Positions 5,511 through 58,281 of a DNA stretch of 64,000 nucleotides are shown one piece after another. Source of the stretch: an uncultured bacterium (GTDB lineage: Bacteria > Vulcanimicrobiota > Xenobia > Xenobiales > Xenobiaceae); contig CATXCY010000010.1 in assembly GCA_958366945.1 (NCBI GenBank), positions 6,463-70,462 of the forward strand, in the 5' to 3' direction. Positions within the stretch are counted from its first letter, which is position 1. The number at the start of each line of letters is the position of its first letter. A program made the translations under genes and the position numbers. The notes under the pieces were generated by a model, which was given only the letters and a program-made list of their open reading frames with translations, did no database searches and was not told the DNA's origin.

Positions 5511-5516
5511 TTCAGT

Positions 5517-6786: not shown

Positions 6787-6791
6787 ATATA

Positions 6792-7823: not shown

Positions 7824-7843
7824 GTAAGATTATAGGGGGAGAT

Positions 7844-24704: not shown

Positions 24705-24755
24705 AAAACGCTCCATTGGGTTGCAACAGAAACCGAGTAGAGCGTTTTTTTTTGT
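24705..24755 (+). terminator. Rho-independent terminator after the kinase gene
   Basis: AAAACGCTC...(structured loop)...GAGCGTTTTTTTTT. Confidence 0.5.
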
Positions 24756-24864: not shown

Positions 24865-25881
24865 ATGGTAAAAATAAGTTCTGCCCAAAGTGGCACTTTT
24901 GCTGACGGTAGTATCGCAATATCTAGTTATAAAGCCAAAGCAGGCTACAGCGATAAGCCTGATTATCAAGCCGAGCAAATAGACAAGGGAGACAGTCTGT
25001 CCTTAACAACAGATATTGGCTCCTTTTTTAATTTTAACCATTTGTCTTCTGGACATCTTCGTCAAGGTACATTAAGTACATCTTCAACAAAGCAAGAACA
25101 AGTTTCTCCAAATTCTCTTATACCCAGACACTTAAGTGAGCAAGAAGCTGAAGCTTTATCCAACCAGCAACTCAAAGCAGAATATGGACGCCATAGTCAA
25201 ATATCTTCTGATTCGGAAGCCAAACAGCAGAAATGTATTAGTCGCTCCATTGTCTTAAGCCAAAATAGGGAGCAAGCTTTGCATATGAATAGGCTGAGCT
25301 CTACTTTGAAACAAAGCGGCCGAAAATTGGCACAGCAGGCTTTGGCTCAGATCGCTTCTGGAGTGGCACTTTACGCTTCAGGAGCGGCTATGGAAGCTGC
25401 GGGTAAGGCTATGCTTGGTTGTCCTTTTACCAAAGCTGCTGGCATGGCCCTCGTATCGAAAGGCAAAGCTTTGAAACAACGTGGTATGCAAATGCGCCAA
25501 TATGGGCAAAAATTGGAGCTTAGTTCTAAAAATTTATTGAGCTCTGGGCTCAGCTTAGGAGCTTCTGCCAATAAACAGATTAACTATGTTAAAAACGCTT
25601 GGCAAGCTCTCAATAATATTTATCAACAAATAAAAACTGTGGGAAATTTAGCCAAAAGTAGTATGCTTTGTGCTGAAAATGTGGGACGTAAACGTGGCCT
25701 TTCTTTTACTTCCACGCCTAGTGGAAATAAATTAAAGGTTGGATTGTCTGCTTCCAAAATTGACAATGCGGTTGTGAGCACGTCAAGTAAGGTAACCAAT
25801 TCGAAAAGTTCAGCCGTTACCAGCAGTGCCGTAAAGCCCCTGGCTTTAGTCATGGGGAGTATGCCAATTGAAGTAAAATAG
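24865..25881 (+). CDS. Hypothetical Ser/Ala/Gln-rich protein (first gene of paralog cassette)
   Basis: Strong RBS agagggggaag. 338 aa, low complexity, no signal peptide. Helical Ala/Gly/Met-rich central segment. Confidence 0.5.
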   Translation: MVKISSAQSGTFADGSIAISSYKAKAGYSDKPDYQAEQIDKGDSLSLTTDIGSFFNFNHLSSGHLRQGTLSTSSTKQEQVSPNSLIPRHLSEQEAEALSNQQLKAEYGRHSQISSDSEAKQQKCISRSIVLSQNREQALHMNRLSSTLKQSGRKLAQQALAQIASGVALYASGAAMEAAGKAMLGCPFTKAAGMALVSKGKALKQRGMQMRQYGQKLELSSKNLLSSGLSLGASANKQINYVKNAWQALNNIYQQIKTVGNLAKSSMLCAENVGRKRGLSFTSTPSGNKLKVGLSASKIDNAVVSTSSKVTNSKSSAVTSSAVKPLALVMGSMPIEVK

Positions 25882-26031
25882 CGGCGTAATTTTATACTTC
25901 TGCCAATCACTTTGCCTGCTGCTTTTGTCTATTCGGAGGCAAAGTGATTGTTCATTATAGAAAATTTTATATTCCATTGCTGGATAAAAATACAGGAAGC
26001 CCTGCAATACAATAGAACTTTCTACAGTATC

Positions 26032-27249
26032 ATGGCTAAATTTCCAGTGCTAGACGATAACTTTCCACGTATTATTCCTTCTTTCAGACAGTTAGTAAAA
26101 ATTATGTCCGAATGTGTGGCCGGCGGAGTTAGCTTAACTTGTACCGCCTTTGAGTTCCGCCAATGTGATGCTGCTTTAGGAACAGCTTTGGGCAATTTTA
26201 TGGAAGTTTTGCGCTTAAAAGAACTTCCTCCAGAGCGCAATGAAGCAATTAACGAAATAGTGCTTTTGTTTACGCGTATGAGTTCCGAAATGGCCAAATT
26301 AGAAACAGCTCTGAGTATGGATGCTACAGCTGCGGCCGTTTCTTGTGTGGCCAATATTTACGATCACTTAAAAGATTTGGAAGAATTAAATATGGACTTG
26401 AAAGCCGCTGTTGGCGATAGCCATATTTATTCCGAAGTGCCGGTGGTGGACAGTTTACTGCGAGCGGGCAATTTTGTCTTAGAAACTAACGGAGCCGAAT
26501 GGGAAGCTCTGAGTGCCCGTTTGGAAGCTCTTATTCCTCAGTGGAATGAGATCGTCTCTGGTACTGGACTGCCGGAAGAACTAATTCGCCACGACAGAGC
26601 GTTGGAGCGCCTCGTTGAGGTACTTAACGAGCGAAATTTAGAAGCTTTGCCAAAAGTTCTGGAAGAAGTAAAATCCAGCGGCGAAGATCTGGTCAACTTC
26701 CAAGATAGTCAAATAGACACCGATACTTCCTCTGTAGTTTTGTGCCCCTATTGTGGTAAGCCTATGATCGAGGGTAGTAAGAAGTGCTTCTCTTGCGGCG
26801 CCAGGATGCCAGAAGAATTTGAGCGAGATTCTACAGCCGACAAAGATTCTGAAAAAGGCGAAGCGGCTTATGAAGGCATGCCAGAATATGTACAGCGTAT
26901 TATGGATATCGCTCAAGAACTTCCCAATAATGCCAAGATGATTCGTCCTTTCAAACGTGCTGTGGGAGAATTGCGTAGACGTGTAGCCGATGCCAATTCG
27001 CGTATCAATAAAATGGCTTCTTCTAAAATTAAGACCACTCCGGAAGAACGCGAAAATATTGATGGCATCGTAGATTTAGCTAATACTTGCATAGAAAATC
27101 TCTCTAAAGCCGTTGAGCTTTTGGAGGAGTTTGAACCACCTGTCGACAGGTTCCATTTGCAATGTGCTTTGGAAGTTATGGTTAAAGCGGTCAAAGAAAT
27201 GCGTGGCATGGGCGGTTTGGCTCAAAAATATCGCAATTCTAAAAAGTAA
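26032..27249 (+). CDS. Zn-ribbon-containing helical protein, paralog A
   Basis: N-terminal motif FPVLDDNFPRIIP and central CPYCG...CFSCG ribbon. It aligns along its length to the next gene. Internal ATG chosen (ORF track starts at 25948). Confidence 0.5.
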   Translation: MAKFPVLDDNFPRIIPSFRQLVKIMSECVAGGVSLTCTAFEFRQCDAALGTALGNFMEVLRLKELPPERNEAINEIVLLFTRMSSEMAKLETALSMDATAAAVSCVANIYDHLKDLEELNMDLKAAVGDSHIYSEVPVVDSLLRAGNFVLETNGAEWEALSARLEALIPQWNEIVSGTGLPEELIRHDRALERLVEVLNERNLEALPKVLEEVKSSGEDLVNFQDSQIDTDTSSVVLCPYCGKPMIEGSKKCFSCGARMPEEFERDSTADKDSEKGEAAYEGMPEYVQRIMDIAQELPNNAKMIRPFKRAVGELRRRVADANSRINKMASSKIKTTPEERENIDGIVDLANTCIENLSKAVELLEEFEPPVDRFHLQCALEVMVKAVKEMRGMGGLAQKYRNSKK

Positions 27250-27294
27250 TCAGTTCTCTTTTGCGTGCACATGACACAGCTCATTGGAGGTACC

Positions 27295-28485
27295 ATGGTA
27301 GATAAGCTGCCTAAGCTAGATGATTCTTTCCCCAAATTGATTCCCCATTTGCGTACTTTTGTAAGTGGTTTGGAACATTGTATAGTCAATAAAGAACCTC
27401 TTTCCCAGCTTCGTGAAGAATTACACCAATGCGATGTTGTTATGTCTGCTTTTGTACTGGCTTTTAAGTACAGTGTGCGCGGCTATGACTACAACGAAGA
27501 AGAACTGGAACATATCGCTCAAGTTTATGCCGATATTGAAGGTGTCGGTGGTGTGCTTTCTTCTCTCATTTGTGATTTAAAAGACGATGATGTCGAAGGC
27601 GCTGTACGTGATGTTAATGCTCTGGTCAATCAGTTGAAAGAAACTGAAAAAAGCTTAGCCAAGCTCGAAGAACTAAGAAATTCCAAGGCAAAGATTTCTG
27701 AATTTGACAGCATTGATGGAGTCCTTAAAGCTGGTCAGGCCGTGGTTGAGGGACGTCGTGGTTGGGAAATGTTGGAAAATCGTCTCGACTATTTGCGCCC
27801 ATCTTTTGATAAGCTGGTCGCTTGCAACTCTTTGCCTGAGCATATAGAAGATTATTGCGAAGCTTTAGATAATTTATTTAGAGTTTGCGAATGTCAATCT
27901 GTAGAAGAATTACCTGCCGCCTTAGAAGCTTTAAAAGCGACTGGTGATGTACTGATAGAAAAATATAAAGAAGCTAAAGCTAAACAAGAAGCTTTGGCTG
28001 CACAACAAGTTTGGCATTGCCCTAAGTGTGGTTGTGAAGTCAGTGAATGGGATAAGCGTTGTCCTTCTTGTGGAATGAGGCTGCCTGAGCGTATCGTCAG
28101 TGAAGTAGGGACTGAGAATAATTGTTTATTGCCCATGTTACCTACATGCGTGCAAACAATTTTAGATAGCGTAAGCTCTTTGCGCGAAGGTAATGATGCT
28201 TGGGCCGAGTTCTCAGCTGGATTGCATGAATATGGCAAATTTGTAGGCGAGCTTAAAGATAGGTACGCCTCTTTGCCAGAAAGTGTTTTTAATGGCGCTG
28301 AAGCAGAAGGTGAGTCTTTGATTCTATCTCGCGAAGCTATGGAAGAAGGACTCACTAAATTAGAAAATGCCTATTATGTATGTGAACACATGCAAAATGG
28401 TGGCGAAGTTAGCGATGAGGAACTCGATTCTACGCTAGAAAGCATGATTGAGGGAGTAGAACAAACACGTCAAATAGCTGGTTAA
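27295..28485 (+). CDS. Zn-ribbon-containing helical protein, paralog B
   Basis: ATG after the RBS ggagg. N-terminus LPKLDDSFPKLIP, ribbon CPKCG...CPSCG, acidic helical regions. Collinear with paralog A. Confidence 0.55.
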   Translation: MVDKLPKLDDSFPKLIPHLRTFVSGLEHCIVNKEPLSQLREELHQCDVVMSAFVLAFKYSVRGYDYNEEELEHIAQVYADIEGVGGVLSSLICDLKDDDVEGAVRDVNALVNQLKETEKSLAKLEELRNSKAKISEFDSIDGVLKAGQAVVEGRRGWEMLENRLDYLRPSFDKLVACNSLPEHIEDYCEALDNLFRVCECQSVEELPAALEALKATGDVLIEKYKEAKAKQEALAAQQVWHCPKCGCEVSEWDKRCPSCGMRLPERIVSEVGTENNCLLPMLPTCVQTILDSVSSLREGNDAWAEFSAGLHEYGKFVGELKDRYASLPESVFNGAEAEGESLILSREAMEEGLTKLENAYYVCEHMQNGGEVSDEELDSTLESMIEGVEQTRQIAG

Positions 28486-28513
28486 AATTTCCCAAAGTTT
28501 GTCTTTTTCTATA

Positions 28514-28569
28514 ATACCCGCAAAAGTACGCGAGCTGCTTAGAAGTGCGTACAAAGCGGGTATTTTTTG
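28514..28569 (+). terminator. Strong rho-independent terminator
   Basis: ATACCCGCaaaaGTACGCgagctgcttagaagtGCGTACaaaGCGGGTATTTTTTgt: nested hairpin plus T-run. Confidence 0.75.
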
Positions 28570-28680
28570 TGATGAGTTAATTAAAAATATTCTATAAAAA
28601 ATTTGCCTGCAACTCTTTACTTTTAGGCCTTGTGCCTTGAAAATAAGGACAAGTCTAGTTTTAAAAGAGAGGTAATTCTC

Positions 28681-29814
28681 ATGGGTGTTTTATCTACTGC
28701 TTCTACTATAGCTATGATGACGGCTAACGATTACAAGAATGCTCAAGCCATCTATGCTAATATGCAACAACAGGCTACGCTTGCCCAGAATGGTGGTATG
28801 GGAGTTCTTACCCAGCAAGCTCTTAAGGCTGCCTCCGCGCAGAATATGGAATTGCTTAATCAGCAAGCCGCGCAAGCCGCTAAAGCTTCCTCTGGCTCTT
28901 CTTCTATCGATTCTATATCATCTTCTTTTAGTGACCAGATTCAGCAACTGACCTCTTCCAATCTTTCTGTCACTGATCAGATTAGCCAGATTACTTCCGC
29001 TTCTGGTATGTCTGCTTCTTCTGCTGCTGGTTTTTCTACTTCTACAGATTTTACTCAGGCTATTATTGATAGCATTTCTTCTGCTAGCAAGTCTTCTTCC
29101 AGCTCCAGCACCAATAGCGACGTAATGACTAGCGCTACCAATATGCTGAAGACTTACTTCAAACAGTTCTGCCCTGGCATGAGCGATGAGCAAATTTCTG
29201 CTATTTGCAAATTTGCCGCCTCTCAGTATGGTGACCTGGCTAAGGCCATGGATATGAGTTCCTTAACTTCTAGCGTTATGGGCTCTTCTTCTACCGGCAG
29301 TGCCAGCAGCTCTGGAAGTGCTAGCAGTGTAGGTAACAATGGCAACTACGGCGCCAATAAGGGCGTAAGCGGTTTGCTTTCCGATGCTGGCGCTATGGTT
29401 GGTATGACTGAGCAGTCTAATGCTGCTTCTATTAACAAAATCACCAAAAAGAGTGGTATCAATTGCCAGACTACCCCTTGGTGCGCTGCTTGGGCAATGA
29501 ATATGCTCAAAGACCATGGTGTGTTGGATACTTCTTCTTGCTCCAACGTCAACTATTGTCCCACTATCGTAAACTGGGCCAAAAAAGAAAATATTTGGGC
29601 TGGTCGCGGTTCTTACACTCCTCAAGCTGGTGACGCGATCCTCTTCGACTGGCAGGGTGATGGTACTTCCGATCACATTGGTATCGTAGAAAAAGTCGCC
29701 AACGGTAAGGTTTATACCATTGAAGGTAACTCTTCTGACTCCGTGGCCAGAAGAAGCTACAGCTTGAGCAGTAGCAAAGTTATGGGCTATATCAACTGCG
29801 CCGCTCAAAAATAA
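28681..29814 (+). CDS. Polymorphic-toxin-like protein: low-complexity N-terminal region, conserved internal module, C-terminal CHAP-domain peptidoglycan amidase/peptidase
   Basis: ATG after the RBS agagagg. C-terminus TPWCAAWAMNML...AGDAILFDWQGDGTSDHIGIVEKVANGKVYTIEGNSS has the CHAP Cys and His motifs. No signal peptide. Confidence 0.6.
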   Translation: MGVLSTASTIAMMTANDYKNAQAIYANMQQQATLAQNGGMGVLTQQALKAASAQNMELLNQQAAQAAKASSGSSSIDSISSSFSDQIQQLTSSNLSVTDQISQITSASGMSASSAAGFSTSTDFTQAIIDSISSASKSSSSSSTNSDVMTSATNMLKTYFKQFCPGMSDEQISAICKFAASQYGDLAKAMDMSSLTSSVMGSSSTGSASSSGSASSVGNNGNYGANKGVSGLLSDAGAMVGMTEQSNAASINKITKKSGINCQTTPWCAAWAMNMLKDHGVLDTSSCSNVNYCPTIVNWAKKENIWAGRGSYTPQAGDAILFDWQGDGTSDHIGIVEKVANGKVYTIEGNSSDSVARRSYSLSSSKVMGYINCAAQK

Positions 29815-29844
29815 GTAAATAGCACTATATAGCTTTGCAATAAC

Positions 29845-29888
29845 AACTCCCTCCGAGTATAAATTTAGCTCGGGGGGAGTTTTCTTTT
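29845..29888 (+). terminator. Rho-independent terminator
   Basis: AACTCCCTCCGAGtataaatttagCTCGGGGGGAGTTttctttt. Confidence 0.75.
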
Positions 29889-29993
29889 GACTAAGATTAG
29901 ATGCAAATAAAGAAATAATAAAGAAAAGTCTAGACGCCTTGGCAAGCTGTCGTTATACATAAGAAACTACTTTTTAGGTTTGGAAGGTGCGTT

Positions 29994-30938
29994 ATGTCTT
30001 TGCCATCTATCACCATGAATTTCTTGGCTGCGCAAGGTGTTGCGGGATTGCCAACCAGTTCCAATAGTGCAAGCACTGGCGTTAATAGTACTGCTGTTTC
30101 TGCTCTTGATAGCGCTTCTCTTAGTTCTTTAGCTACAGCAGGAACTGATGGATTGGCCAACCTTGGCTCTTTGTCTGATTACTTGTCTGGTCAGGCCTCT
30201 GGAAGTTCTGGCAGCAGTGCCTCTTTGGGACTTTCTGGCAGTGCCGATTTTGCTTCCATGGTTGGTGAAATTGCCAAGCAATATAAGGGCAGCAGTTCTT
30301 CTTCTGCCAACAATCAGGTAATGTCCACTGCTGCCAATATGTTAAAAACATATTTTAAGCAATTTTGTCCTGGTATGAGTGACGACCAGATTACCGCTAT
30401 TTGTAATATGGCCTCTGCACAATACGGCGATTTAGCTAAAGCTATGGATATGAGTTCTTTAACTTCCAGTGTTATGGGCTCTTCTTCTGCTGCTTCTGGA
30501 GCTACTGGCGCTTCTTCTAGTGCTGGTTCTTCCGCAGTTTCAAAAGTAAGTGCCAAAGACGTTAAGGGTACCGCTTGGGGCAAGGCTTTAGCTGCTGACG
30601 CAGAGTCTCATGCCACAGGTAGCGGCGGCTGGTGCTTCAAATATGTGCGCCAAGCTTTAGAGCGCCATGGAGTTACTGGAGTTGGTGGCGCCAGTGCTTA
30701 TATGGCTGCCGATCAATTAGCCCGCAATAGTAACTTCAAAGAAATTAGTGTTTCAGAATCAGATCTTCGCAATTTGCCTGCAGGTTATGTTGTCGTTTGG
30801 AATAGAGGTAACGGTGCTAGTAGGCAGCATGGCCATATTTGCATCTCTTTAGGCGATGGTAGAGAAGCTTCTGACGTTATTCGCAAAATGACTCAAGGAT
30901 ATGGCACTTCCTTTAGAGTTTTTCAGCCTGTAAAATAA
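29994..30938 (+). CDS. Polymorphic-toxin-like protein: low-complexity N-terminal region, same conserved internal module, C-terminal Tae4-like papain-fold peptidoglycan amidase
   Basis: C-terminus GGWCFKYVRQALERHG...AGYVVVWNRGNGASRQHGHICISLGDG parallels the Cys (xCxxxxxxLxxxG) and His (GH-hydrophobic) motifs of the Tae4 family of gamma-D-glutamyl-mDAP amidases. No signal peptide. Confidence 0.55.
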   Translation: MSLPSITMNFLAAQGVAGLPTSSNSASTGVNSTAVSALDSASLSSLATAGTDGLANLGSLSDYLSGQASGSSGSSASLGLSGSADFASMVGEIAKQYKGSSSSSANNQVMSTAANMLKTYFKQFCPGMSDDQITAICNMASAQYGDLAKAMDMSSLTSSVMGSSSAASGATGASSSAGSSAVSKVSAKDVKGTAWGKALAADAESHATGSGGWCFKYVRQALERHGVTGVGGASAYMAADQLARNSNFKEISVSESDLRNLPAGYVVVWNRGNGASRQHGHICISLGDGREASDVIRKMTQGYGTSFRVFQPVK

Positions 30939-30956
30939 GTTGCTATTAAAATAAAA

Positions 30957-31000
30957 AATAACGTTCTGTCTATATTTCATTTGCAGAACGTTATTTTTTT
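30957..31000. terminator. Bidirectional rho-independent terminator (convergent genes)
   Basis: aaaataAATAACGTTCTGtctatatttcatttgCAGAACGTTATTTTTTT. Confidence 0.75.
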
Positions 31001-31044
31001 GCTCACTTATAAAAATAATTGTTTGTTATTTTCTATACAACCAA

Positions 31045-33303
31045 CTAATCAAACATTTTATCTAATTCGGCTTTTTTAAAGCGTTGAGGCTCGTGACCAG
31101 TCCAGTCGATCACAAAATAAATCTTTTCTGGTTGTTGTATTTTGCTGAAAAAACGTATTTGATCTGTAGGTAGCATTTTATAATTGTAATACCAGCCAGT
31201 GGGAGAGGGTTTGGAAATTCCTTTGGCATGAAGATGGCGAGCACCTTTAGGGAAGAAGGGCATAACTCGTGCAGCCAATTTCTCGCCTAAAACTTTGCAC
31301 CCCATATCGCCGCGCATTATTAAGCGGAGGTGGGGAGCGAAGAGTAAGCTGCTTTCAAAGCCTACCGTCTGCCCTTGAAAATCGCCTTCTACGGTATCGC
31401 GAATTATCAATCTTTGTTCTGTAGGCTTAAAAAGAAGCTCACGTCTTAAACTTAAAACTAAACCGTTAGTTAGATGAGCTTGACGCCTTGTCCACAAGAG
31501 TACATCCGCTCCTCCTTTTCTTTCCCTATACAAAGGAGAGCAAAAAACGTAACCCTCTTTATGTATCTCAGTTATATTGTCAGGAAAATCTATGCGTTCG
31601 GAAGCGTTCAAATCTCCCAAATAGGCCACTTTAAAAGGCGAAACTTCCTCGGCAAGTGTGGGAGCGGAATGGGAAAAAAAGCTATTTAAATAAGGATAAG
31701 CGCTGCTAGAAATAGTGGAAAAACCAGCATCTATAAGGAATGGCTCATTTTCTATAGTTAAAAATATTGATAAGAAATCACAATGTGGCTGGGGCACAGC
31801 TTGGTGTAAATTGGGAGCTTTATAAAAACCTTTAGTTAGATCGGCAGTTGGACAACCTTTTATAATGGCCTGAGAACTGTTGGCTCCCCAATGATCACGC
31901 ACACTGCCTATACCATTGGCAACGAAATAAAAACTTGTCTCTTCAGGAAAATAATCTCCTCGACCAGCACCAAATTTGGCGGTGAGCTCTGGAGTAGGAG
32001 CTACCCACCAAGACACTTCCGCAGGCATACGCTCTATGCCACATAAGAATTCGTCATGGTCGAAAACTATGGCACCCAGACATAATAAAGTCTGAATATA
32101 CTCGGATATAGAGGATTGCCTTCCCATAAATCCTGGAGCACAAAATGTGCCTATATGAGGAGCTACTTTATTGGTGCCGTTAATAGCTTGCAAAGCTTCA
32201 AGAGAAATGCGCAGCGCTTCTGATAAATATTGCGGAGTTTGGGTATGATTGCTTACATGCTGCAATACAGGCAATAGCATCCATTCTAAAGCCGCACAAT
32301 GAGCGCATAAAGATCCACTTAAATGTAACCCGCTACTTCCAAACTCACGTTCAATAAGGTCTAAAAGCTTAGACTCTGCAACTGAACGCCACCGCTTAGA
32401 TAATTTTAATTCAGGAAAATTGCTTGCGAATACATAGAGACAGGCTGCAGCAGGGAACGATAAAACTGTATCGTAGCGAAGGTGCCAAGCCAAAGCTGCT
32501 CCGTGTACGATCATCGTTTCCATTATTTTCGCGAAAATACGGGGCGTAAAAGCAGAGCTGTGTAAACACATATCAACGGCAATCATCCAGTTCATCAGCC
32601 TGATGGCTACCGTATCAAAATTTAGCCAGTTTACACCTATCCAAAGAGGATTGCTGGCTCCCCATTCAGTCGCTTGAATGAGAATCTCGGAAGCGTATTT
32701 GTCCTGTTTGCTAAGCCAATAAGAGCGGGCCAAAGTGAGAAAATGATAATGCTCATTTAGCTCCCAGGTACGATCCAAAGAAGGATACTTGGCTAAGGGA
32801 GATTCGCTCAGATTGGCTTTATTATCCGGAGATAAAACTTTTCTCAGCTCTTTAACGGCAGTTCTAGGCCAGCTTCTAGAGCAAAAATCGGAAAACCAAT
32901 CAATGTTGCCAGTGAAAGTTTCTTGTTGGTTGGAAAGATAAGAAGAAAAAGTATGCCTCATCGCTTGCTGCGTCGAGTCACTGAGCTCTTTGACAGCTGA
33001 AGGAGAGGATTTAAACGCATTTGCAACTTCCTTGGTGTCTGAATGTCGCAAAAATAGCGTAGGGCGACTGCGGTCGCGGAAGTGATTGAAGAGCGCTTCC
33101 GCGGCCTTATCAGGTTGATCGTGCAAAGAATAATTTTTTGCTTCCTCGATTCCAGGTGCTCCAGAGAATTGCCCAAACAAATATTTGTCTTGCAAATCGT
33201 AAGTAGAACAACTGTCGTAAGCCAAATCGACCTGAGCCTCCAAGCTAAATGGCATGGAAGAAGTGATTATATTCTTACGTAACCAAGGAAACATATTATC
33301 CAA
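31045..33303 (-). CDS. Heparinase II/III-like (alginate-lyase superfamily) protein
   Basis: 752 aa. N-terminal alpha/alpha toroid-like region with W/N/R-rich motifs (WIGVNWLNFDTVAIRLMNWMIAVD) and a C-terminal beta-sandwich-like region. Immediately downstream of a DegT aminotransferase. Confidence 0.55.
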   Translation of the reverse strand: MDNMFPWLRKNIITSSMPFSLEAQVDLAYDSCSTYDLQDKYLFGQFSGAPGIEEAKNYSLHDQPDKAAEALFNHFRDRSRPTLFLRHSDTKEVANAFKSSPSAVKELSDSTQQAMRHTFSSYLSNQQETFTGNIDWFSDFCSRSWPRTAVKELRKVLSPDNKANLSESPLAKYPSLDRTWELNEHYHFLTLARSYWLSKQDKYASEILIQATEWGASNPLWIGVNWLNFDTVAIRLMNWMIAVDMCLHSSAFTPRIFAKIMETMIVHGAALAWHLRYDTVLSFPAAACLYVFASNFPELKLSKRWRSVAESKLLDLIEREFGSSGLHLSGSLCAHCAALEWMLLPVLQHVSNHTQTPQYLSEALRISLEALQAINGTNKVAPHIGTFCAPGFMGRQSSISEYIQTLLCLGAIVFDHDEFLCGIERMPAEVSWWVAPTPELTAKFGAGRGDYFPEETSFYFVANGIGSVRDHWGANSSQAIIKGCPTADLTKGFYKAPNLHQAVPQPHCDFLSIFLTIENEPFLIDAGFSTISSSAYPYLNSFFSHSAPTLAEEVSPFKVAYLGDLNASERIDFPDNITEIHKEGYVFCSPLYRERKGGADVLLWTRRQAHLTNGLVLSLRRELLFKPTEQRLIIRDTVEGDFQGQTVGFESSLLFAPHLRLIMRGDMGCKVLGEKLAARVMPFFPKGARHLHAKGISKPSPTGWYYNYKMLPTDQIRFFSKIQQPEKIYFVIDWTGHEPQRFKKAELDKMFD

Positions 33304-33315
33304 GCCGCAGATCTC

Positions 33316-34416
33316 CTAATGACGAGGGAAATTCTTAATTGTAGATACTACAGTGGCAATTTGCTCGTCGCTAAGTTCGGGGAACATAGGCAAGGACATG
33401 ACTTCTTTTTGCACTTGCTCGCAAATTGGCAAAGAGCCTTCCTTCATGCCGCTGGATGCAAAAGTTTTTTGCAAGTGAAGGCATACTGGGTAGTAAATGG
33501 CCGGACCAACACCGTTTTCACGCATATAATCGAAAAGCTCGTCACGATGAGGAGTGCGAATAGTGTACTGGTGGAAGACGTGATGGAAACCTTCGCGCTC
33601 AAGAGGAGTGATCACTCCGCTGTCTTTCAGAGCTTCTGTGTATTTTTGAGCTACAGAGCGACGCTTTTTATTCCACTCATCGACATGTTTGAGCTTGACG
33701 CGCAAAGCGGCAGCCTGAATTTCGTCTAAACGACTATTGGTGCCTAAAATTTCGTGATAGTATCTGACCTTACTGCCGTGACCGCGCAGCATTTGCACTT
33801 TTTCAAAGTACTCGTCGCTATTGGTTAAAACCATACCGCCGTCGCCAATACCGCCTAAGTTTTTGCTGGGGAAGAACGAGAAACAGCTGAGATCGCCGAA
33901 TCCTCCGACTTTTTTGCCATCTACGCAAGCTCCGGTAGCTTGAGCGCAGTCTTCAATTAAAGCTAAATTGTGCTCTTGGCAAATAGCCTTAATGGCTTTG
34001 ACATCGGCAGCGTGTCCGTAAAGGTGGACGCAAATTACAGCTTTGGTATGTGGAGTGATAGCTTTCTTTAAGCTTTCCGGATCTAAAGTAAAAGTGCGAG
34101 GGTCAATATCGGCAAATACAACTTTGGAACCAGCCAAAGCTACAGCGCCGGCGGAAGCTACAAAAGTGAAGGAAGGGACGATAACTTCATCGTCGGCTTT
34201 AAGATCTAGGGCTCTCACTGCCAATTGCAGAGCATCAGTGCCGTTCCCTACGCCTATACCGTGTTTAACTCCGTTCCAAGCCGCAAACTCTTCTTCGAAA
34301 GCTTTTACTTCGGGGCCTAAAACATATGCAGTAGAGCGCAGAACTTTCAGTACGGCTGCTTCCAATTCATCTTGGATTTGAGAGTACTGAGTGCGAAGCT
34401 CTAAAATAGGGATCAT
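33316..34416 (-). CDS. DegT/DnrJ/EryC1/StrS-family PLP-dependent sugar aminotransferase
   Basis: VIVPSFTFVASAGAVALAG, DCAQATGA, FSFFPSKNLG (PLP lysine). 366 aa. Confidence 0.88.
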   Translation of the reverse strand: MIPILELRTQYSQIQDELEAAVLKVLRSTAYVLGPEVKAFEEEFAAWNGVKHGIGVGNGTDALQLAVRALDLKADDEVIVPSFTFVASAGAVALAGSKVVFADIDPRTFTLDPESLKKAITPHTKAVICVHLYGHAADVKAIKAICQEHNLALIEDCAQATGACVDGKKVGGFGDLSCFSFFPSKNLGGIGDGGMVLTNSDEYFEKVQMLRGHGSKVRYYHEILGTNSRLDEIQAAALRVKLKHVDEWNKKRRSVAQKYTEALKDSGVITPLEREGFHHVFHQYTIRTPHRDELFDYMRENGVGPAIYYPVCLHLQKTFASSGMKEGSLPICEQVQKEVMSLPMFPELSDEQIATVVSTIKNFPRH

Positions 34417-34768
34417 AAATATGTCTCCTTCTATCCGTTCATCAGGAGCGGAACCGCTTTGATGGCAGAAAATTTCTCAGACTGAGTAAAATTTTCCGTC
34501 GGCAAAATATAGGTGATAAAAAATATCCAATCGGATTTTTGGCGTAGTATTGAAAATGCTTGTCTAAATGCCAAAACAGCGAGGGACGTACCGCTGCTCC
34601 AAAAACTGGAAGCACGGTTCGGCCAAATTGTTTCAGCGGAAGTATAGCACTCCAAAGACCTTACAAGCCACCTATTTTCCAAGCATAAGGGGCAAGCCCT
34701 GCCAAAACAGGTGATTTTTTTGTAACGAGGTCAAGTGAAGCGGCCGAAACTACGTCAAAAGTATGTTA

Positions 34769-36583
34769 TTAACCTTTGCTGCGTACTTCAAACTCTAAGC
34801 GCCATTTAGGAATGGAGTCTTGGCAACACCAAACTTCTAAGGTACCTACTTCGGTTACATAAGTTTCTAAAGTAACTGGTACTACTTTACCAATTTCTCC
34901 CGCTTCAGCCGGTAAAGTAATTTGCAACGAAGGCAATTCTTCTATATCGTCTTCCCAATCGTCGATTAAGTCACCAATTTTATCTTGCTGTCGACAAGTG
35001 GAAGCTAAAAATCTAAATTCAGCCAGTTCGCCTATGACCAGGCCGAAACTGCGATTAGGTAGACGCTCGCGTGAGTCTTCTTCCATGCCGAAAGGAGCGA
35101 CGCATAAAGCTTTAATGGGAGGAACAAGACCAGGAACAGCTGGCATGGAAGTTTCGATACCAACATAATAAGAGCGATTGGTACCGGCTTTAATTCTTAT
35201 TCCAGAACCTTGACTAGCCAAACCGCTGCGCACGGCTCCGCGAGCTACGGCCAAGTCGTAGTCCGCTCCTACTAATTCTTTGGCGGGAGGAGCTCCCACA
35301 GATTCTAACCAAGAGTTTACCGTTTCCAATAAACGACGGCGCAAGATGGGAGCTTTCAGCACGCCTCCGTTAAAGAGAATTGCTGTAGGAGCAAAAATGG
35401 GAGCGGAGCCATCTTCTGGTTTATTGGCTGCCAAAAATCTGGCCAAATGTTTGGTGATAGCCGGATTCGATTCAAAAGGCAAGCCCAATTCGCGCAAACC
35501 ACTTTGACGAGACCGTTCAGCTTGTTCATCAAGGGAACATTTAGGGAAGAATCCGTCTACAATTAGTTGCTCGGTAACTTGGCGGCTTAAGGAGTCGGCA
35601 ATGGAAGAAGCTATTAAGCTGCTGCCGCGTCCAGGAATGGTGACGCTCCACTCTTCCTCGGCGTATTCTTGTAACAGTTGCTCTTTGGCTGTGCGGCAAG
35701 CATGGGTGAGGACTTGCATTTGCCAAGCGTCAAGCTTAATTTTACGCTCTGATTTTAGCTTTTGCTGCATATACACAGCCAAAGTCAGATCCATGTTGTC
35801 TCCGCCAAGTAAGAGATGATCTCCTACAGCTGAGCGCTCTAAGCATAAGCTGCCGCCTTGGTCGGCTACAGTAATAAGGCTAAAGTCGGTAGTTCCTCCA
35901 CCTATATCACATACTAAAATTTTGTCTCCGACTGCTACTTGAGAGCGCCAATCTTCTTCAGTGTTAACCAACCAAGCATAAAAAGCGGCTTGAGGCTCTT
36001 CTAAGAGGGTTAAATTTTTGATGCCAGCTTTTTGAGCTGCTTGAACGGTTAGTTCTCTAGCTATCGTATCAAAGGAAGCAGGTACAGTTAAAACGACTTG
36101 CTGATCTTCTAAGGGCTGATCGGGGTGTTCAAAATTCCAAGCTGAACGTAAATGCTCCAAATAACGAGCCGAAGCGTCAATGGGGGAGATATGCTCCACT
36201 TCTTCGGGAGCGTTCCAAGGCAAAATAGGAGCACTGCGATCTATTTGCTCACTAGAAAGCCAAGACTTGGCTGAAGAAACAACTCTGTGGGGAACTTTAG
36301 CGCCTTGCTCACGGGCCATATATCCGACTATGTCTTTGGCCTCTTTATCCCAAGGCAATTCGATACTATGGGCTGGCAATTCGTGGGAGCCGGGGAAGTA
36401 AAGAAATGAAGGCAGAGTCTTGCGTGGCTCTACTGTAGCCGGATAGGTAAGCTGAGGAACAGCAAAATGATTTATAGGAGGAGTCTCTTTAGCTGCCTTC
36501 GCTTGTGCTGAAATGGATTCCGGATCAGACCAAGCTAAAGCGCAATTTGTTGTTCCCAAGTCTATACCTATAATCATATGCAA
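34769..36583 (-). CDS. Hsp70-family (actin-like ATPase) protein, non-canonical
   Basis: IIGIDLGTTNCALAW, VLTVPASFDTIARELTVQAAQKAGI, VCDIGGGTTDFSLI. Confidence 0.8.
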   Translation of the reverse strand: MHMIIGIDLGTTNCALAWSDPESISAQAKAAKETPPINHFAVPQLTYPATVEPRKTLPSFLYFPGSHELPAHSIELPWDKEAKDIVGYMAREQGAKVPHRVVSSAKSWLSSEQIDRSAPILPWNAPEEVEHISPIDASARYLEHLRSAWNFEHPDQPLEDQQVVLTVPASFDTIARELTVQAAQKAGIKNLTLLEEPQAAFYAWLVNTEEDWRSQVAVGDKILVCDIGGGTTDFSLITVADQGGSLCLERSAVGDHLLLGGDNMDLTLAVYMQQKLKSERKIKLDAWQMQVLTHACRTAKEQLLQEYAEEEWSVTIPGRGSSLIASSIADSLSRQVTEQLIVDGFFPKCSLDEQAERSRQSGLRELGLPFESNPAITKHLARFLAANKPEDGSAPIFAPTAILFNGGVLKAPILRRRLLETVNSWLESVGAPPAKELVGADYDLAVARGAVRSGLASQGSGIRIKAGTNRSYYVGIETSMPAVPGLVPPIKALCVAPFGMEEDSRERLPNRSFGLVIGELAEFRFLASTCRQQDKIGDLIDDWEDDIEELPSLQITLPAEAGEIGKVVPVTLETYVTEVGTLEVWCCQDSIPKWRLEFEVRSKG

Positions 36584-36624
36584 ACGTCTCCCAGAATAGT
36601 TTATAAAAGTCCCAATTTACCAGG

Positions 36625-37131
36625 CTATAACTCTACTTCAGCCGGACAAATAACGTCTGAATCTTCGTCCTGAGCGCTTTGGGGCAAATTGGCTTTTTGT
36701 AAGCGCCAGCCTTTGTGACGCAAGATCCCTTTGAAGGGCGGATCGCCTTCTACTTTGCCTACCAAACGAATTGCGCCTGGATCGAAGCCGTCTTCTACAG
36801 TAATTTCTATACCTTCTTCTTCGGTACGGATAGGCTCCAGAATCAAATACTCTTGGACAGCTTTGCGGCAGCCTTTATAAACAGTAGATTTTACTACAGC
36901 TCCGACTTGAGCGTCAGGGACATTCTCTAAATCTTCTTGCAAAAAGTCTATAAGCCGTCCTTCTCTCTGAAGCAAAGCTAAAACTCCTACCGCACCGGGA
37001 TAAAGCGAAGGTACTCCGGACGGAGTTTCTTGAACAACTTCGCGATCTGCCAGCAGAAGAGCCAACTTTTCGGCAAATTCTTTATTAAACAAAGCTTTGA
37101 AAAAAGCTTTAAAAGCTGTGATTATACGCAT
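36625..37131 (-). CDS. Small acidic protein, possibly DUF2760-like Hsp70 partner
   Basis: 168 aa, N-terminus MRIITAFKAFFKALF, directly downstream of the Hsp70-like gene on the same strand. Confidence 0.35.
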   Translation of the reverse strand: MRIITAFKAFFKALFNKEFAEKLALLLADREVVQETPSGVPSLYPGAVGVLALLQREGRLIDFLQEDLENVPDAQVGAVVKSTVYKGCRKAVQEYLILEPIRTEEEGIEITVEDGFDPGAIRLVGKVEGDPPFKGILRHKGWRLQKANLPQSAQDEDSDVICPAEVEL

Positions 37132-37259
37132 GATCTAAATTTTTGCCAAATTGGTGTCGACTCCTTGCCTTTATGTAATGTGGTAACAGCCGACGCTTCT
37201 TGACCGAAGTAAAACCTCTCTAACTGTAGATTCTTTTATCAGTGCATTGACACTATTGG

Positions 37260-38210
37260 TTAGCTGGCGCAGGCACGTTGCAATCTGTCTCTAACTGCGG
37301 CCCAACTTTCTTCATTTTGTGGTGGTTGTTCTATAAGAATGGATTGCGGCCGCAAGCTGTCCGCATACCTAAGCATACTATAAATAGATTGAGCGTATGC
37401 TTGAGGATCGTTTGGCAAACTGAGGCAGCGTACTTGTTGAGCATCAGGTATTGTCAACTTGTGCATAGCTAAAACTACCAATGGTGATGGATTGCATTTT
37501 ATAAGCTCAGATAACTCGGCGCCAGATACCATTCGTGCTGGAGTGTTGGGAGCGTAATGCTTCTTCAAGGTGCCTGGAGCTTTGCTGCCTTGGCCGCAAG
37601 CAATGGGAAAACCAGCAATTTCGCTAATTACTGAAGCACTAAGCATACCTGGACGGACAATGACTGGTTTATCCTTGGAAAAATCGACAATGGTAGATTC
37701 TACACCTACGGCACAAGGGCCGCCGTCCAGTATGTATTTAAGCTGATCGCCAAATTCTTCGCGTACGTGTTCAGCGCTGGTAGGGCTGATATGACCGAAG
37801 CGATTGGCTGAAGGGCCGATAATACCACGCCCGAACACGGAAATAAGCTCTCTGGTTAAGGGATGAGCTGGAATCCTTATTCCTACGCTATCTTGGCCAC
37901 CGGTTACTTGTGGCAATACTTCAGGGCGTTTGGGCAAAATAAGGGTCATGGGGCCTGGCCAAAAATGTTCAGCTAATTTGCGGGCTGCTTCTGGCACCTC
38001 TCTAGCCCAAAGCTCCAATTTGTCTAAACTATCTAAGTGGACAATAGAAGGATGATCGGCTGGTCTACCTTTTAGGGCGTACACTTTGCGGATAGCTTCT
38101 ATATTGGATGCATCTGCTCCTAAACCGTATACTGTTTCCGTAGGAAAAGCGACCATACCGCCTTGGGCCAACTCTTGAGCCGCTTGTTTTATAAGTTCGT
38201 TGTCAAACAT
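37260..38210 (-). CDS. L-threonylcarbamoyladenylate synthase (Sua5/YrdC/TsaC family, long Sua5 form)
   Basis: GGMVAFPTETVYGLGADASN YrdC motif plus a C-terminal Sua5 domain. 316 aa. Confidence 0.88.
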   Translation of the reverse strand: MFDNELIKQAAQELAQGGMVAFPTETVYGLGADASNIEAIRKVYALKGRPADHPSIVHLDSLDKLELWAREVPEAARKLAEHFWPGPMTLILPKRPEVLPQVTGGQDSVGIRIPAHPLTRELISVFGRGIIGPSANRFGHISPTSAEHVREEFGDQLKYILDGGPCAVGVESTIVDFSKDKPVIVRPGMLSASVISEIAGFPIACGQGSKAPGTLKKHYAPNTPARMVSGAELSELIKCNPSPLVVLAMHKLTIPDAQQVRCLSLPNDPQAYAQSIYSMLRYADSLRPQSILIEQPPQNEESWAAVRDRLQRACAS

Positions 38211-38368
38211 ATTTACGACTTTCTTTATTAAGGTGAAATCTTAAGGTTGCGGCGCTACTTCGCACAAAAAGAAAACCGTCCCCCCGCATGAAGGGACGGT
38301 TCATCGATTTTTTGAAGTTTCGAAAGACGAAAACAACCTAAAATCAGTAGATCGTTAGCTGATTTTTT

Positions 38369-38689
38369 TTAGCGGCGGGCTCCACCGTGATTTTTGAAGC
38401 ACTCCGCGCAATAAATGGGCTTATCGTTGCGAGGGCGGAAAGGTACTTTGGCGGTTTTGCCGCACTCAGCGCAAACTACTTCGAACATTTCACGAGTACC
38501 GTTAGAACGGCCTAAAGAGCCATTTTCACGCTCGCGTTTGTGGTTGCGGCGACACTCTGGGCAGCGGCGGGGATCACTGGAAAAACCTTTAGAACTGTAA
38601 AACTCTTGTTCACCGGCTGTAAAAACGAAAGTCTCGCCACAATCACAGCAAGTTAAAGTACGATCAGAAAACACTCTAATTTCCTCCAA
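38369..38689 (-). CDS. Internally duplicated zinc-ribbon protein (2 x CxxC...CxxC)
   Basis: CCDCGETFVFTAGEQEFY...CPECRRNH and CAECGKTAKVPF...CAECFKNH. Confidence 0.5.
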   Translation of the reverse strand: MEEIRVFSDRTLTCCDCGETFVFTAGEQEFYSSKGFSSDPRRCPECRRNHKRERENGSLGRSNGTREMFEVVCAECGKTAKVPFRPRNDKPIYCAECFKNHGGARR

Positions 38690-39176
38690 CAGGAAGTTGC
38701 CAACGGGAATGCGAGCTTCTCGACATACTTCCCAGGGGTCTAAACCCAGGAATCATCGGATACCAACAAATTTCGCCTGCTAAAATGCAGGTCTTACGAG
38801 TTCTCTCCGCAATGGATGATGCCCCACCCATATTTATTTTGACTAAATACAAGCAACGAAACAACCAGCATTAAGGGAAGCCGTAGCTTTTATTCCAATT
38901 CGCACCAAAATTGTAGACCGCCCCTAAAAAGTAGTCAAGGAGTGAAAGTGGCGAAAGGTTAAGAAAAATTTAATTAAATTGAGCTGAATTTTGCTTATAA
39001 TGCGCCTTTCTGCATGAATAAAGAGAATGAAAATGTATATCTCTCGAATCTACCTTTTCTAGTAAAAAAATAAAATCAATCAATAAAATATTGCACTTTG
39101 TCCTATCGCTTTATTTATGGAAAAAATCCTATAAATGTACCAAGTAAAAAGTACTTAACCTAAAAGCAAGTATAAT

Positions 39177-43503: not shown

Positions 43504-43567
43504 AAGGTTGTTTTGACAGCTCTCGGACTTTTATTGCATGTATATGCATTGATTAATTAGCGGATTG

Positions 43568-44596: not shown

Positions 44597-44623
44597 GTTG
44601 CTTTTTGTCTCTCCGTATTGTGC

Positions 44624-46423: not shown

Positions 46424-46607
46424 CTTACTGCGTATTGACTAATCCTATCCAGATCAACTCTAAGGTAGCTTCGGTCTAAGGCTGGTAGCTACCGACAGAA
46501 AAGTCAATTATCCCTTTCTGAAAATTAGATTGTCTATTTTGTGCGTTGTCAGTGAAAGCAATAAACTGAAATTTCAAGACTTATTTTCCGCTCAAATTTA
46601 GGAAATA

Positions 46608-49842: not shown

Positions 49843-49927
49843 AAGGTTGTCTCTACCTTTAGAGGTTGCCTTTTAGGTAAAAAAATTAGTTATTTTACGC
49901 AAGTTTTTCTGTGGTGGAGGAAAACAA

Positions 49928-50404
49928 ATGTCTCAGTTTAGTGTGCGTCCTGCTATCAGTGTAGGCAGGTTGCCTGAATGGACTAGACAAATTCGGAGGC
50001 GGGCAGTGCGTTCAACGGAGGGCTTGAGCACTATTTCGGCTCAGGCTAAGGCTGAAATTCCTAAGCTAGCTACCGTTCCTAAAGTATGGTGCTTTTGTGT
50101 TGCGGCCGTATTGCTATCGTTTTTATTCTTGGTTACTTTGCAATATGCCGGCATAGTGGAAGTGCAATACGAACTGAATAGAGCTCAGTGTAAGCTGTCC
50201 AGCCTAGAGAAACAAAAGGTTGAGGCCGACTTGCAAGTCGAACAGTTGTCTTCTTTGAAGAGAATCTCTGAGCAAGCTCTCAAATTAGGTATGGAATACC
50301 CCTCCGCCGACGGTGTGCAAGTAGTGCGCGTATCTGTTGCTGATAATGGCAAAGTAAACGTCGCTTACGTGCCTTCGACGAACTCTGCTGATTATAAGCC
50401 ATAA
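49928..50404 (+). CDS. ftsL: FtsL-like cell-division protein (single TM helix plus coiled coil)
   Basis: Position between rsmH and ftsI. TM helix VWCFCVAAVLLSFLFLVTL followed by a Leu-heptad-rich stretch. Confidence 0.5.
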   Translation: MSQFSVRPAISVGRLPEWTRQIRRRAVRSTEGLSTISAQAKAEIPKLATVPKVWCFCVAAVLLSFLFLVTLQYAGIVEVQYELNRAQCKLSSLEKQKVEADLQVEQLSSLKRISEQALKLGMEYPSADGVQVVRVSVADNGKVNVAYVPSTNSADYKP

Positions 50405-50486
50405 GCAAAGCGTAAAGCCTACGTTATTCTTTTGAAGCATATATAAAGTGTTTTCAGGTGGCGCTGCTTTAGAATTTAAGATTGAG

Positions 50487-58246: not shown

Positions 58247-58281
58247 GATGCCCGATGAAAAAGGCCGGAGGTCGCATATAA

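Follow-up and report, generated by a model that had tools for sequence, protein, structure and literature searches.

Five genes (g1 to g5) on the + strand at positions 24865-30938 of the window, the 64-kb stretch of DNA analyzed here, include two genes for Zn-ribbon proteins (g2 and g3) and two for signal-less proteins with cell-wall hydrolase domains (g4 and g5). We see an even chance that they belong to a new system of exported cell-wall hydrolases in which a leader works with a partner protein (the leader-plus-partner reading), for which we infer binding, export and target. g4 and g5 would be the gut-Xenobia form of an Eremiobacterota-wide family that combines a non-enzymatic leader with interchangeable wall-degrading domains. 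The proposal builds on the observed domain identities, a shared module under selection, the lack of signal peptides, the pairing of the genes and the co-variation of partner clades with the leader. The same gene coordinates were obtained from independent gene calls on a near-identical contig.

g4 (28681-29814, + strand) encodes a 377-aa protein with a disordered, Ser/Gln-rich N-terminus, a module at residues 123-200 (nt 29047-29280) and, C-terminally, a CHAP domain at residues 264-350 (nt 29470-29730). The CHAP assignment of the initial annotation was borne out by PF05257 (49.3 bits, cut-off 26; E 7e-13), and the motifs PWCAAW and DHIGIV, for the catalytic Cys and His, could be read directly from the sequence. 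g4 further matches endolysin PHROGs (E 1.7e-17), and this endolysin-type CHAP was all that PADLOC and PHROGs returned for the cluster. The 314-aa product of g5 (29994-30938, + strand) has a disordered N-terminus, the module at residues 85-161 (nt 30246-30476) and a C-terminal Cys-His hydrolase domain at residues ~190-314 (nt 30561-30935). This domain had been taken for Tae4 (PF14113), which is neither its profile match nor its best structural relative; the fold is Tae3-type and NlpC/P60-like, with C214 and H281 invariant. Judged by sequence, the C-terminal domain of g4 (CHAP) is an amidase/endopeptidase domain and that of g5 a Tae3-like Cys-His endopeptidase domain, with putative activity. At loci L094-L098 the Tae3-like domain follows a lipoprotein signal or LysM, from which we infer that in other lineages it acts outside the cytoplasm, on the wall.

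The near-identical module claimed for g4 and g5 is indeed shared, over 78 aa with 54/78 identical residues (E 2e-32), and is predicted in g5 to form a helical hairpin. Comparison of the module codons gave 74% identity for DNA versus 83% for protein, with 24 synonymous and 9 non-synonymous changes; the module has been under purifying selection since an old duplication, and g4 and g5 are old paralogs. Recent gene conversion as the source of the module identity was rejected because synonymous sites are heavily diverged. In every genome having the module it is fused to a CHAP or a Tae3-like domain, in agreement with the swapped hydrolase C-termini described initially, and the CHAP domain is 95% identical between species in L008 and 85% in L009. 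A local HMM search found the module confined to the close gut lineage, a module-only profile search of 5.8 billion proteins returned one fragment, and the match to a 198-aa protein of L004 was not significant (E 0.17). A phage origin was likewise considered and rejected: no g2-like genes were found on viral contigs, and five 'viral' Tae3-like hits differ in architecture and bear signals.

g2 (26032-27249, + strand; 405 aa) and g3 (27295-28485, + strand; 396 aa) are collinear paralogs (107/407 identical, E 3e-36), of which g3 is evolving faster. As the initial annotation had stated, both contain the N-terminal motif (F/L)PxLDDxFP(R/K)(I/L)IP and a CPxCG...CxSCG ribbon. The ribbon is located at residues 238-258 of g2 (nt 26743-26805) and 241-263 of g3 (nt 28015-28083). 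The four ribbon cysteines are invariant across 22 family members and form the two CxxC knuckles of a Zn ribbon. Scores against the Zn-ribbon families PF13240 and PF13248 were 21-22 bits, under the cut-offs of 25-27, and the ribbon segment appears in the AF2 model as short beta-strands (residues 235-237 and 244-246) of low confidence (pLDDT 53-59). The AF2 model is otherwise all-helical, with three helical bundles in g2, and neither g2 nor g3 has a transmembrane segment or signal, which is consistent with soluble proteins. A relation to T6SS adaptors was not supported, as DUF4123, DUF1795 and DUF2169 matched neither g1-g3 at E<=1 nor 10 remote g2-like proteins at E<=0.1.

The remaining gene, g1 (24865-25881, + strand), encodes a 338-aa protein without known domain and with a Gly/Ala-rich amphipathic core (GVALYASGAAMEAAGKAMLGCPFTKAAGMALV). 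It has zero Pfam or NCBIfam matches and no PDB relative, and only 5 cluster representatives among 1.84 billion proteins are related to it; g1 is lineage-restricted. In L004/L005 and L008 a g1 homologue precedes g2, whereas L006/L007 and L009 have none. A kinship with the Gly-zipper/(MMQ)n protein of L026 was rejected, as the two are not related.

Intrinsic terminators, placed by sequence reading and folding, delimit the cluster and divide it. Its left edge is the terminator of an upstream PRK-family gene (24705-24753, + strand; hairpin and T-run, -20.5 kcal/mol, z -4.3) and its right edge a bidirectional terminator between g5 and a convergent heparinase II/III-like gene (30953-31002, + strand; -18.4 kcal/mol, z -7.1). 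Further terminators lie 3' of g3 (28513-28570, + strand; -23.5 kcal/mol, z -3.9) and 3' of g4 (29845-29890, + strand; 14-bp GC-rich stem and T-run, -25.1 kcal/mol, z -5.2). In the g1/g2 gap, folding of 25882-26031 gave a strong hairpin at 25904-25950 (+ strand), a possible terminator or attenuator in which a clear T-run is absent; a consensus scan for promoters and terminators was uninformative. g1-g5 comprise at least three transcription units and probably four (g1, g2-g3, g4 and g5). While each toxin-like gene is followed by its own strong terminator (hairpin and T-run 3' of g4 and g5), as had been noted, the term 'five-gene cassette' was overstated, since terminators divide the cluster. Nor is there one conserved five-gene operon: relatives hold g2-g3 alone, g4-g5 alone, or g1-g2-g3 with the 198-aa protein. 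The neighbors of the cluster are core genes, and the dcw cluster is 18 kb away.

The suggested functional tie between the Zn-ribbon paralogs and the hydrolases is strongly backed by adjacency that is kept in distant genomes. In a set of 78 independent Eremiobacterota loci, a Tae3-like gene is found <=400 bp from 15 of the 22 full-length g2-like genes (P 6.6e-16). A reciprocal scan with one g2-subfamily alignment as query found a gene with a Met-rich leader adjoining in 7/7 loci (4 Tae3-like, 2 GH19-like and 1 leader-only). These sequence comparisons indicate that the link between Zn-ribbon family and hydrolases is deep and Eremiobacterota-wide. The g2-like and hydrolase genes are divergent in 14 loci, several MAGs supply 4-6 loci each, and tandem arrays of four paralogs occur.

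Across the phylum the Met-rich leader precedes, in one protein, domains of the Tae3-like, GH19-like and SGNH-like (DUF459/SGNH) types. Outside gut Xenobia it usually consists of a Met/Gln-rich (MMQ)n helix and a following Gly/Pro/Met-rich linker; g4 and g5 lack this Met-rich helix of the soil relatives, and intermediates hint that their module may be homologous to the leader. The clades of g2-like proteins follow the leader subtype, whereas the catalytic domain varies inside a clade, a pattern that speaks more for a partner binding the leader than for an immunity protein. A KaiC-like ATPase and some small stand-alone proteins carry the (MMQ)n region as well; its presence on the ATPase implies that it is not exclusive to exported enzymes. 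Literature searches gave no result for secretion or polymorphic toxins in Eremiobacterota, nor for hydrolases with Met-rich leaders.

In the lineage of the window itself, the association between g2-like and hydrolase genes is loose. L006/L007 keep g2-g3 and lack the hydrolases, L009 keeps g4-g5 with no g2-like gene within 10 kb, and some related genomes combine g1-g2-g3 with the 198-aa protein (L004), which is non-enzymatic. L004/L005 have an insertion of an MmeI restriction-modification gene at the junction between the PRK gene and the heparinase-like gene. Among close relatives the hydrolase genes are present or absent at one syntenic site; together with the tandem arrays, such gain and loss is typical of accessory effector genes.

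The absence of Sec/Tat signals was confirmed for all five proteins, in which hydropathy analysis detected no hydrophobic h-region and no RR motif was seen. The maximum KD19 was 0.57 for g4 and 1.07 for g5, and their first 25 residues contain no Arg, no lipobox and one (g4) or no (g5) Lys. In many soil relatives the N-terminal region includes a Met/Gln-rich helix that is weakly hydrophobic (KD15 1.3-2.2) and lies 25-75 residues into the protein; g4 and g5 lack it. The N-terminal regions of g4 and g5 match no Pfam or NCBIfam domain, LXG and WXG100 included, nor any recognizable trafficking domain. As stated initially, T3SS, T6SS and T7SS genes are absent from the window; T6SS genes (hcp, vgrG, core), exporters and holin-like genes were not recurrent beside 79 related loci, and a C39-ABC transporter was found neither in the window nor recurrently near related loci. 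An FLGG-type, double-glycine-like motif is present in 61/188 relatives and missing in g4 and g5, and double-glycine/PCAT export of the family is a hypothesis. As the initial annotation had noted, no immunity-like ORF follows g4 or g5, and there is no room for one, the gaps of 179 bp and 106 bp being terminators and promoter space; no Tai3 (IseA-family) gene adjoins g4/g5, and the tandem arrays of L003 contain no ORFs between paralogs. The polymorphic-toxin reading was upheld for the common N-terminus and variable hydrolase C-termini and not for a downstream immunity gene, trafficking domain or secretion system, and the identity of g4 and g5 as toxins rather than autolysins is putative.

We propose that in g4 and g5 the catalytic domain is attached to an N-terminal region which has no signal, is mostly disordered and holds the predicted helical-hairpin module. 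A Zn-ribbon protein of the g2/g3 family would bind this leader in the cytoplasm as a chaperone, adaptor or gatekeeper, and the leader would carry the enzyme over the inner membrane of the diderm producer, using neither Sec nor Tat. A diderm envelope with thin peptidoglycan is described for the phylum's one cultured member (PMC9758169). Once exported, the enzyme may cut peptide links of peptidoglycan, and we favor the walls of competitors as target, since a diderm that releases the enzyme completely from its cell can do without an immunity protein. It is a less likely extension that Eremiobacterota own an unrecognized targeting and export pathway with the Met/Gln-rich leader as tag (a 50-78-aa helical module in gut Xenobia) and a Zn-ribbon/helical-bundle receptor (g2 and g3). 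The lack of an exporter in the window or as a recurrent neighbor and the lack of an immunity gene count against the leader-plus-partner reading, as does the 85-95% conservation of catalytic domains between species, which also fits housekeeping enzymes. The loose association in the window's own lineage, the missing Met-rich helix of g4 and g5 and the (MMQ)n region of the KaiC-like ATPase speak against it as well.

Such a housekeeping role is rather unlikely in our judgment. g4, g5 and their relatives would then be autolysins that remodel their own wall during growth, septum splitting or budding, and the Zn-ribbon protein a cytoplasmic regulator that links the cell cycle with their release or activity, a control logic like that of FtsEX-EnvC/PcsB or CwlO, to which homology is absent. 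The absent immunity genes, the CHAP conservation in L008 and L009 and the core-gene surroundings with the dcw cluster agree with autolysins, and the divergent layout recalls regulator-target pairs; gain and loss of hydrolase genes at one syntenic site, high copy number and four-paralog arrays do not. Moreover, Tae3-like, GH19 and endolysin-like CHAP domains are types typical of lytic weapons, and the export of signal-less enzymes would stay unexplained. That g4 and g5 are canonical polymorphic toxins of a known contact-dependent system (T6SS or T7SS) whose genes lie in another part of the genome, with g2/g3 as adaptors, is very improbable: PAAR, VgrG, Hcp, LXG, WXG, DUF4123, DUF1795 and DUF2169 are absent from all five proteins, such genes are neither in the window nor recurrent beside the related loci, and a Tai3/IseA-like immunity gene is missing, even though Tae3 is a T6SS effector family (PMC6099711, PMC12700454) and the common N-terminus with swapped C-termini would fit.

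The genes might also form no functional unit, g2-g3 being a core pair of unrelated function and g1, g4 and g5 independent insertions at a variable PRK/heparinase-like junction. Separate transcription units, the occurrence of g2-g3 alone in L006/L007 and of g4-g5 without g2-like genes in L009, and the MmeI insertion point in this direction, but adjacency of the families in distant soil lineages is far above chance, also in the reciprocal scan, and makes the idea improbable. Slightly less credit still is given to an intracellular action, in which assembly with the Zn-ribbon protein (e.g. into a condensate or scaffold) is driven by the Met/Gln- or Ser-rich regions of low complexity and the papain-like domains act on cytoplasmic wall precursors or peptides. 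It would account for the missing export signal and for the (MMQ)n region on the KaiC-like ATPase and small proteins, but is hard to reconcile with a leader common to three unrelated wall-degrading folds, the GH19 glycosidase included, and with Tae3-like relatives that bear a lipoprotein signal or LysM.

The leader-bearing hydrolase and its Zn-ribbon partner make up a phylum-wide two-gene module that was previously uncharacterized and raises the question of how lytic enzymes with no signal get out of a diderm cell when T6SS, phage holins and Sec/Tat are not involved. The leader-plus-partner reading predicts that the partner binds the leader, that the leader suffices for export and that the enzymes lyse walls. 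If these predictions hold, a delivery signal and its adaptor would be gained as a new pair, modular bacteriolytic enzymes would become available from a new source, a phylum of soils and animal guts that is almost uncultured, and hundreds of 'hypothetical' proteins of Eremiobacterota could be annotated more easily. The extension to an export pathway would, if true, amount to a secretion signal and adaptor of a new kind for diderm bacteria. Housekeeping autolysins would instead imply a new cytoplasm-to-wall control logic.

Compared with known systems, Tae3 of Ralstonia pickettii (Tae3/Tai3, PDB 4HZ9) has a single domain of ~120 aa, travels as T6SS cargo and comes with a gene for a periplasmic immunity protein of the IseA family, whereas g5 has a 190-aa N-terminal extension, no T6SS or immunity genes nearby and a linked partner, the cytoplasmic Zn-ribbon helical protein, that bears no relation to Tai3. 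Wall hydrolases without a classical cleavable signal are known as SAR endolysins and from holin/endopeptidase-dependent 'type 10' secretion, but g4 and g5 have no hydrophobic helix, no conserved holin-like neighbor and no phage context. About one third of the family resembles double-glycine leaders (C39-peptidase ABC) in having G-[VIL]-[GS]-[ND]-F-L-G-G ~30 residues before the catalytic domain, with hydrophobic residues at -4 and -7 from GG, although the upstream sequence is not the usual amphipathic leader and g4 and g5 lack the motif. With polymorphic toxins the g4/g5 family shares a selected common N-terminal region with alternative C-terminal hydrolases, tandem arrays and presence/absence variation; it differs in having no immunity genes or orphan toxin/immunity cassettes, in an N-terminal region that matches no known trafficking domain, and in that all payloads seen are wall or envelope hydrolases, with no nuclease, deaminase or similar. 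Finally, g2 and g3, proteins of ~400 aa with three helical bundles, a Zn ribbon and putative binding, have no sequence or fold similarity to effector chaperones and adaptors (T6SS Eag/DUF1795, DUF4123 and DUF2169; T7SS Lap for LXG toxins), but like these they are soluble, cytoplasmic, neighbor-encoded proteins that track the N-terminal region of the effector and not the toxin domain.

Independent gene calls on the near-identical contig L001 agreed on five + strand genes in the window, namely g1 (24865-25881), g2 (26032-27249), g3 (27295-28485), g4 (28681-29814) and g5 (29994-30938). The intergenic DNA was read and folded, and strong terminators were obtained 5' of g1 and 3' of g3, g4 and g5, in line with the initial annotation, which had placed a strong terminator after each toxin-like gene (g4 and g5). 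Between g1 and g2 lies a strong, near-perfect 17-bp hairpin (25904-25950) that lacks a clear T-run and may serve in termination, attenuation or RNA processing. The terminators together with this hairpin therefore delimit the units g1, g2-g3, g4 and g5 and no single operon. The initial annotation had also recorded that export signals and small immunity-like ORFs 3' of g4 and g5 are absent, and both points were confirmed: hydrophobic segments that might act as a signal or membrane anchor are missing from all five proteins, and the gaps of 179 bp after g4 and 106 bp after g5 leave no space for an immunity gene.

g4 (377 aa) and g5 (314 aa) have one stretch of 78 aa in common (the module; 69% identity, E 2e-32). 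Within its 53-codon core the proteins are 83% identical while the DNA is only 74% identical, and the codon differences comprise 24 synonymous and 9 non-synonymous ones. This pattern therefore indicates an old duplication and a module under selection; the same codon divergence rules out a recent gene conversion. Matches to a module HMM were confined to the close gut lineage, and each is followed by CHAP or a Tae3-like domain. Two paralogs in L009, a locus of a more distant Xenobia, share the module and its N-terminal flank (~75 residues); here, too, one C-terminus is CHAP and the other Tae3-like. The proposed combination of a shared module with swapped hydrolase C-termini was thus recovered beyond the window, in the gut lineage and in L009.

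The C-terminus of g4 is a CHAP domain, as first suggested (49.3 bits vs a cut-off of 26), and is of the endolysin type. In one assembly the g4 orthologue (P0106, 354 aa) carries a frameshift that removes the second half of CHAP; it may represent a pseudogene or result from misassembly. For g5 no Pfam match was obtained. AlphaFold, supplied with 30 homologues, modelled residues 190-314 confidently (pLDDT about 90-98) and two helices spanning the shared module (residues 103-151, pLDDT 83-90), with the first ~80 residues disordered. In a profile alignment the family motifs GWC-FKYVRQALE and GHEHGHISI fell onto GRC-AEYVRKAIE and GHPHGHMAI of Tae3, and C214 and H281 of g5 are invariant in the family. 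On this basis the Tae4-like identity initially given to g5 was replaced by Tae3-like, and the broader assignment to Tae-type wall amidases was retained. Tae3 cleaves the cross-links of peptidoglycan as a DD-endopeptidase, and its immunity protein Tai3 is a member of the IseA family (PMC12700454, PMC6099711).

g2 (405 aa) and g3 (396 aa) proved to be collinear paralogs, as had been proposed: they align over their full length (26% identity, E 3e-36) and share the N-terminal (F/L)PxLDDxFP(R/K)(I/L)IP motif and the central CPxCG...CxSCG ribbon. Zn-ribbon Pfam models match slightly under their cut-offs, and in the 22-member family alignment no column other than the four Cys is invariant. Species-representative genomes were searched with the Tae3-like domain, which yielded 213 matches and 79 retained loci. 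Most of the loci come from Eremiobacterota MAGs; a genome often has four to six of them, and tandem arrays occur among them. An iterated g2/g3 HMM located full-length g2-like genes at about a quarter of these loci; the encoded proteins, of ~380-480 aa and with about 20% identity to g2, keep the helical-Zn-ribbon-helical layout. Across 78 independent loci, 15 of the 22 full-length g2-like genes lie within 400 bp of a Tae3-like gene (P 6.6e-16 under uniform placement within a locus), and of the direct adjacencies in all fetched loci 14 are divergent and 5 co-directional, the hydrolase gene leading. Clustering of all neighbours gave no other recurrent family (ATPase, membrane protein or immunity-like), except for a 110-aa fragment-like g2 relative at six loci. 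A 110-aa acidic protein encoded directly downstream of the amidase in four loci (L043, L044, L048 and L050; for example L050:10371-10703) shows similarity to the central part of the g2 family (SLLRAGxxWLxGxL) and may be a truncated second partner. A reciprocal metagenome scan with a g2-like subfamily returned 7 loci, in which the partner was a divergent Tae3-like gene (4), a GH19-domain gene carrying the same N-terminus (2) or a 78-aa leader-only ORF (1).

Hydrolases adjoining g2-like genes carry a Met-rich leader of N-terminal NPMMMGG repeats and a MFMMMQMMQMMQMMMG helix, often followed by a motif of the GCGCGH type; a linker, PMPMPMP or Gly-rich, comes next. In the fetched loci the leader region is fused upstream of Tae3-like domains in 41 ORFs and of GH19 in 3, and it also precedes a DUF459/SGNH hydrolase. 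The Cys motif (GCGCGH, GGCCH or NCGCG) lies behind the Met-rich helix, some 45-60 residues into the protein, and is conserved in L051, L060, L073, L087-L090 and L093; together with the abundant Met it might form a metal (Cu/Zn) site. The (MMQ)n region was further detected on a KaiC-like P-loop ATPase (L038:6642-7679), as the C-terminus of a Gly-zipper protein (L026:6333-7109) and as a stand-alone ORF of 78 aa (L092:1425-1661), all three encoded on the - strand. The region may therefore serve more generally as a tag for assembly or recognition, and the three proteins are candidate components of the missing machinery.

Clades of g2-like proteins coincide with leader subtypes. In the largest clade the leader is constant while the catalytic domain of the partner is Tae3-like (8), GH19-like (3) or absent (1); the Zn-ribbon protein therefore tracks the leader and not the enzyme, which argues for a leader-binding role rather than catalytic-site immunity. 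The adaptor function initially proposed for the Zn-ribbon proteins thus gained support from adjacency and from the match between clades and leaders, and from these we infer the binding itself. A second N-terminal element, G-[VIL]-[GS]-[ND]-F-L-G-G, is conserved in 61 of 188 Tae3-like family members, ~30 residues upstream of the catalytic domain amid low-complexity Gly/Ser sequence (for example P0018 residues 97-108 and L011:11496-12263). The element is similar to double-glycine processing sites, but a transporter of the matching kind is not linked to the loci. g4 and g5 have neither the Met-rich helix nor the FLGG-type motif. Judging by intermediates in L010, L017 and L003 and by the family alignment, the module of g4 and g5 seems to sit where the leader sits, and the two may be homologous.

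The window originates from a gut member of Candidatus Xenobia, phylum Eremiobacterota (NCBI: Vulcanimicrobiota), and has a GC content of ~0.42-0.45; g2 shares 90% identity with a protein of 'Candidatus Bruticola sp.', and public assemblies hold near-identical and 90%-identical contigs. Xenobia/Eremiobacterota-type loci (L008, L011, L010, L016, L028, L047 and others) also sit in MAGs labelled Riflebacteria, Selenomonadaceae, Burkholderiales, Gammaproteobacteria or Deltaproteobacteria, probably through taxonomic mislabelling or binning errors. Among gut Xenobia, g1-g5 occupy the junction of a PRK-family gene and a conserved heparinase II/III-like, DegT, HSP70-like block, which is syntenic across all loci examined. 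This junction holds g1-g2-g3-g4-g5 in the window and L008, g2-g3 alone in L006/L007, and in L004/L005 an MmeI restriction-modification gene, g1-g2-g3 and a non-enzymatic, Ser/Gly/Met-rich protein of 198 aa; L009 has g4-g5 alone with a different left flank. With such subsets and the separate transcription units, the five genes do not form the cassette first described. g1 has only five related clusters among 1.84 billion representatives, and its homologues were found only upstream of g2. The MmeI-family gene (L004/L005 6170-8576) is an insertion that separates the PRK gene from the g1 homologue, and it marks the junction as a hotspot of gene gain. The larger ORFs of the window are ordinary core genes according to Pfam scans. 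Window positions 31045-47996, encoding heparinase II/III-like, two DegT aminotransferase, HSP70-like plus DUF2760, Sua5, three B12-binding/radical-SAM and one amine oxidase genes, are probably a glycan or lipid modification island, and a complete-looking dcw cluster (48853-63047; MraW, FtsI-type PBP, MurE, MurF, MraY, MurD, FtsW, MurG, MurC) follows 18 kb downstream of the hydrolase genes.

The best-supported explanation is a two-part system of modular wall hydrolases and a cytoplasmic Zn-ribbon protein. The N-terminal leader or module would be a handle recognised by the Zn-ribbon protein, and the enzyme would then be exported across the inner membrane and act on foreign walls. The main rival is a housekeeping system of autolysins under a cytoplasmic regulator; foreign walls are preferred over own walls because of presence/absence variation, tandem expansion and weapon-type folds. 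The sole cultured member of the Eremiobacterota is diderm: it has thin peptidoglycan and an outer membrane that bears LPS, and it lacks flagella (PMC9758169). A diderm producer that exported the enzyme past its own outer membrane would need no immunity protein.

Canonical T6SS/T7SS toxins are less likely: as initially reported for T3SS, T6SS and T7SS, Pfam scans detected no genes of these systems, nor C39-ABC genes, among the larger ORFs of the 64-kb window. The sole secretion-related machinery there is a type IV pilus/T2SS-like group (4319-8917) 17 kb upstream, with a PilX_N minor pilin (4319-4879) and, separated from it by unannotated ORFs, a T2SSF/PilC-like protein (6777-7823); it has no evident tie to the hydrolase cluster. 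An intracellular role, compatible with the missing signals, is also less likely. On IMG/VR contigs (L094-L098, GC 0.26-0.36) the Tae3-like domain follows either LysM or a lipoprotein signal with an LFGC/LLGC lipobox and a Cys-rich region. These are classical exported architectures in unrelated low-GC organisms, which supports a wall target outside the cytoplasm. Chance neighbours are less likely as well.

Literature searches gave no described counterpart of the leader, the partner family or the export machinery. That the pairing of leader and Zn-ribbon protein represents a truly new pathway of targeting and export is a tentative proposal, and we consider it rather unlikely at present. The catalytic domains are known, and so is the logic of a shared N-terminus, a swapped toxin domain and a chaperone.
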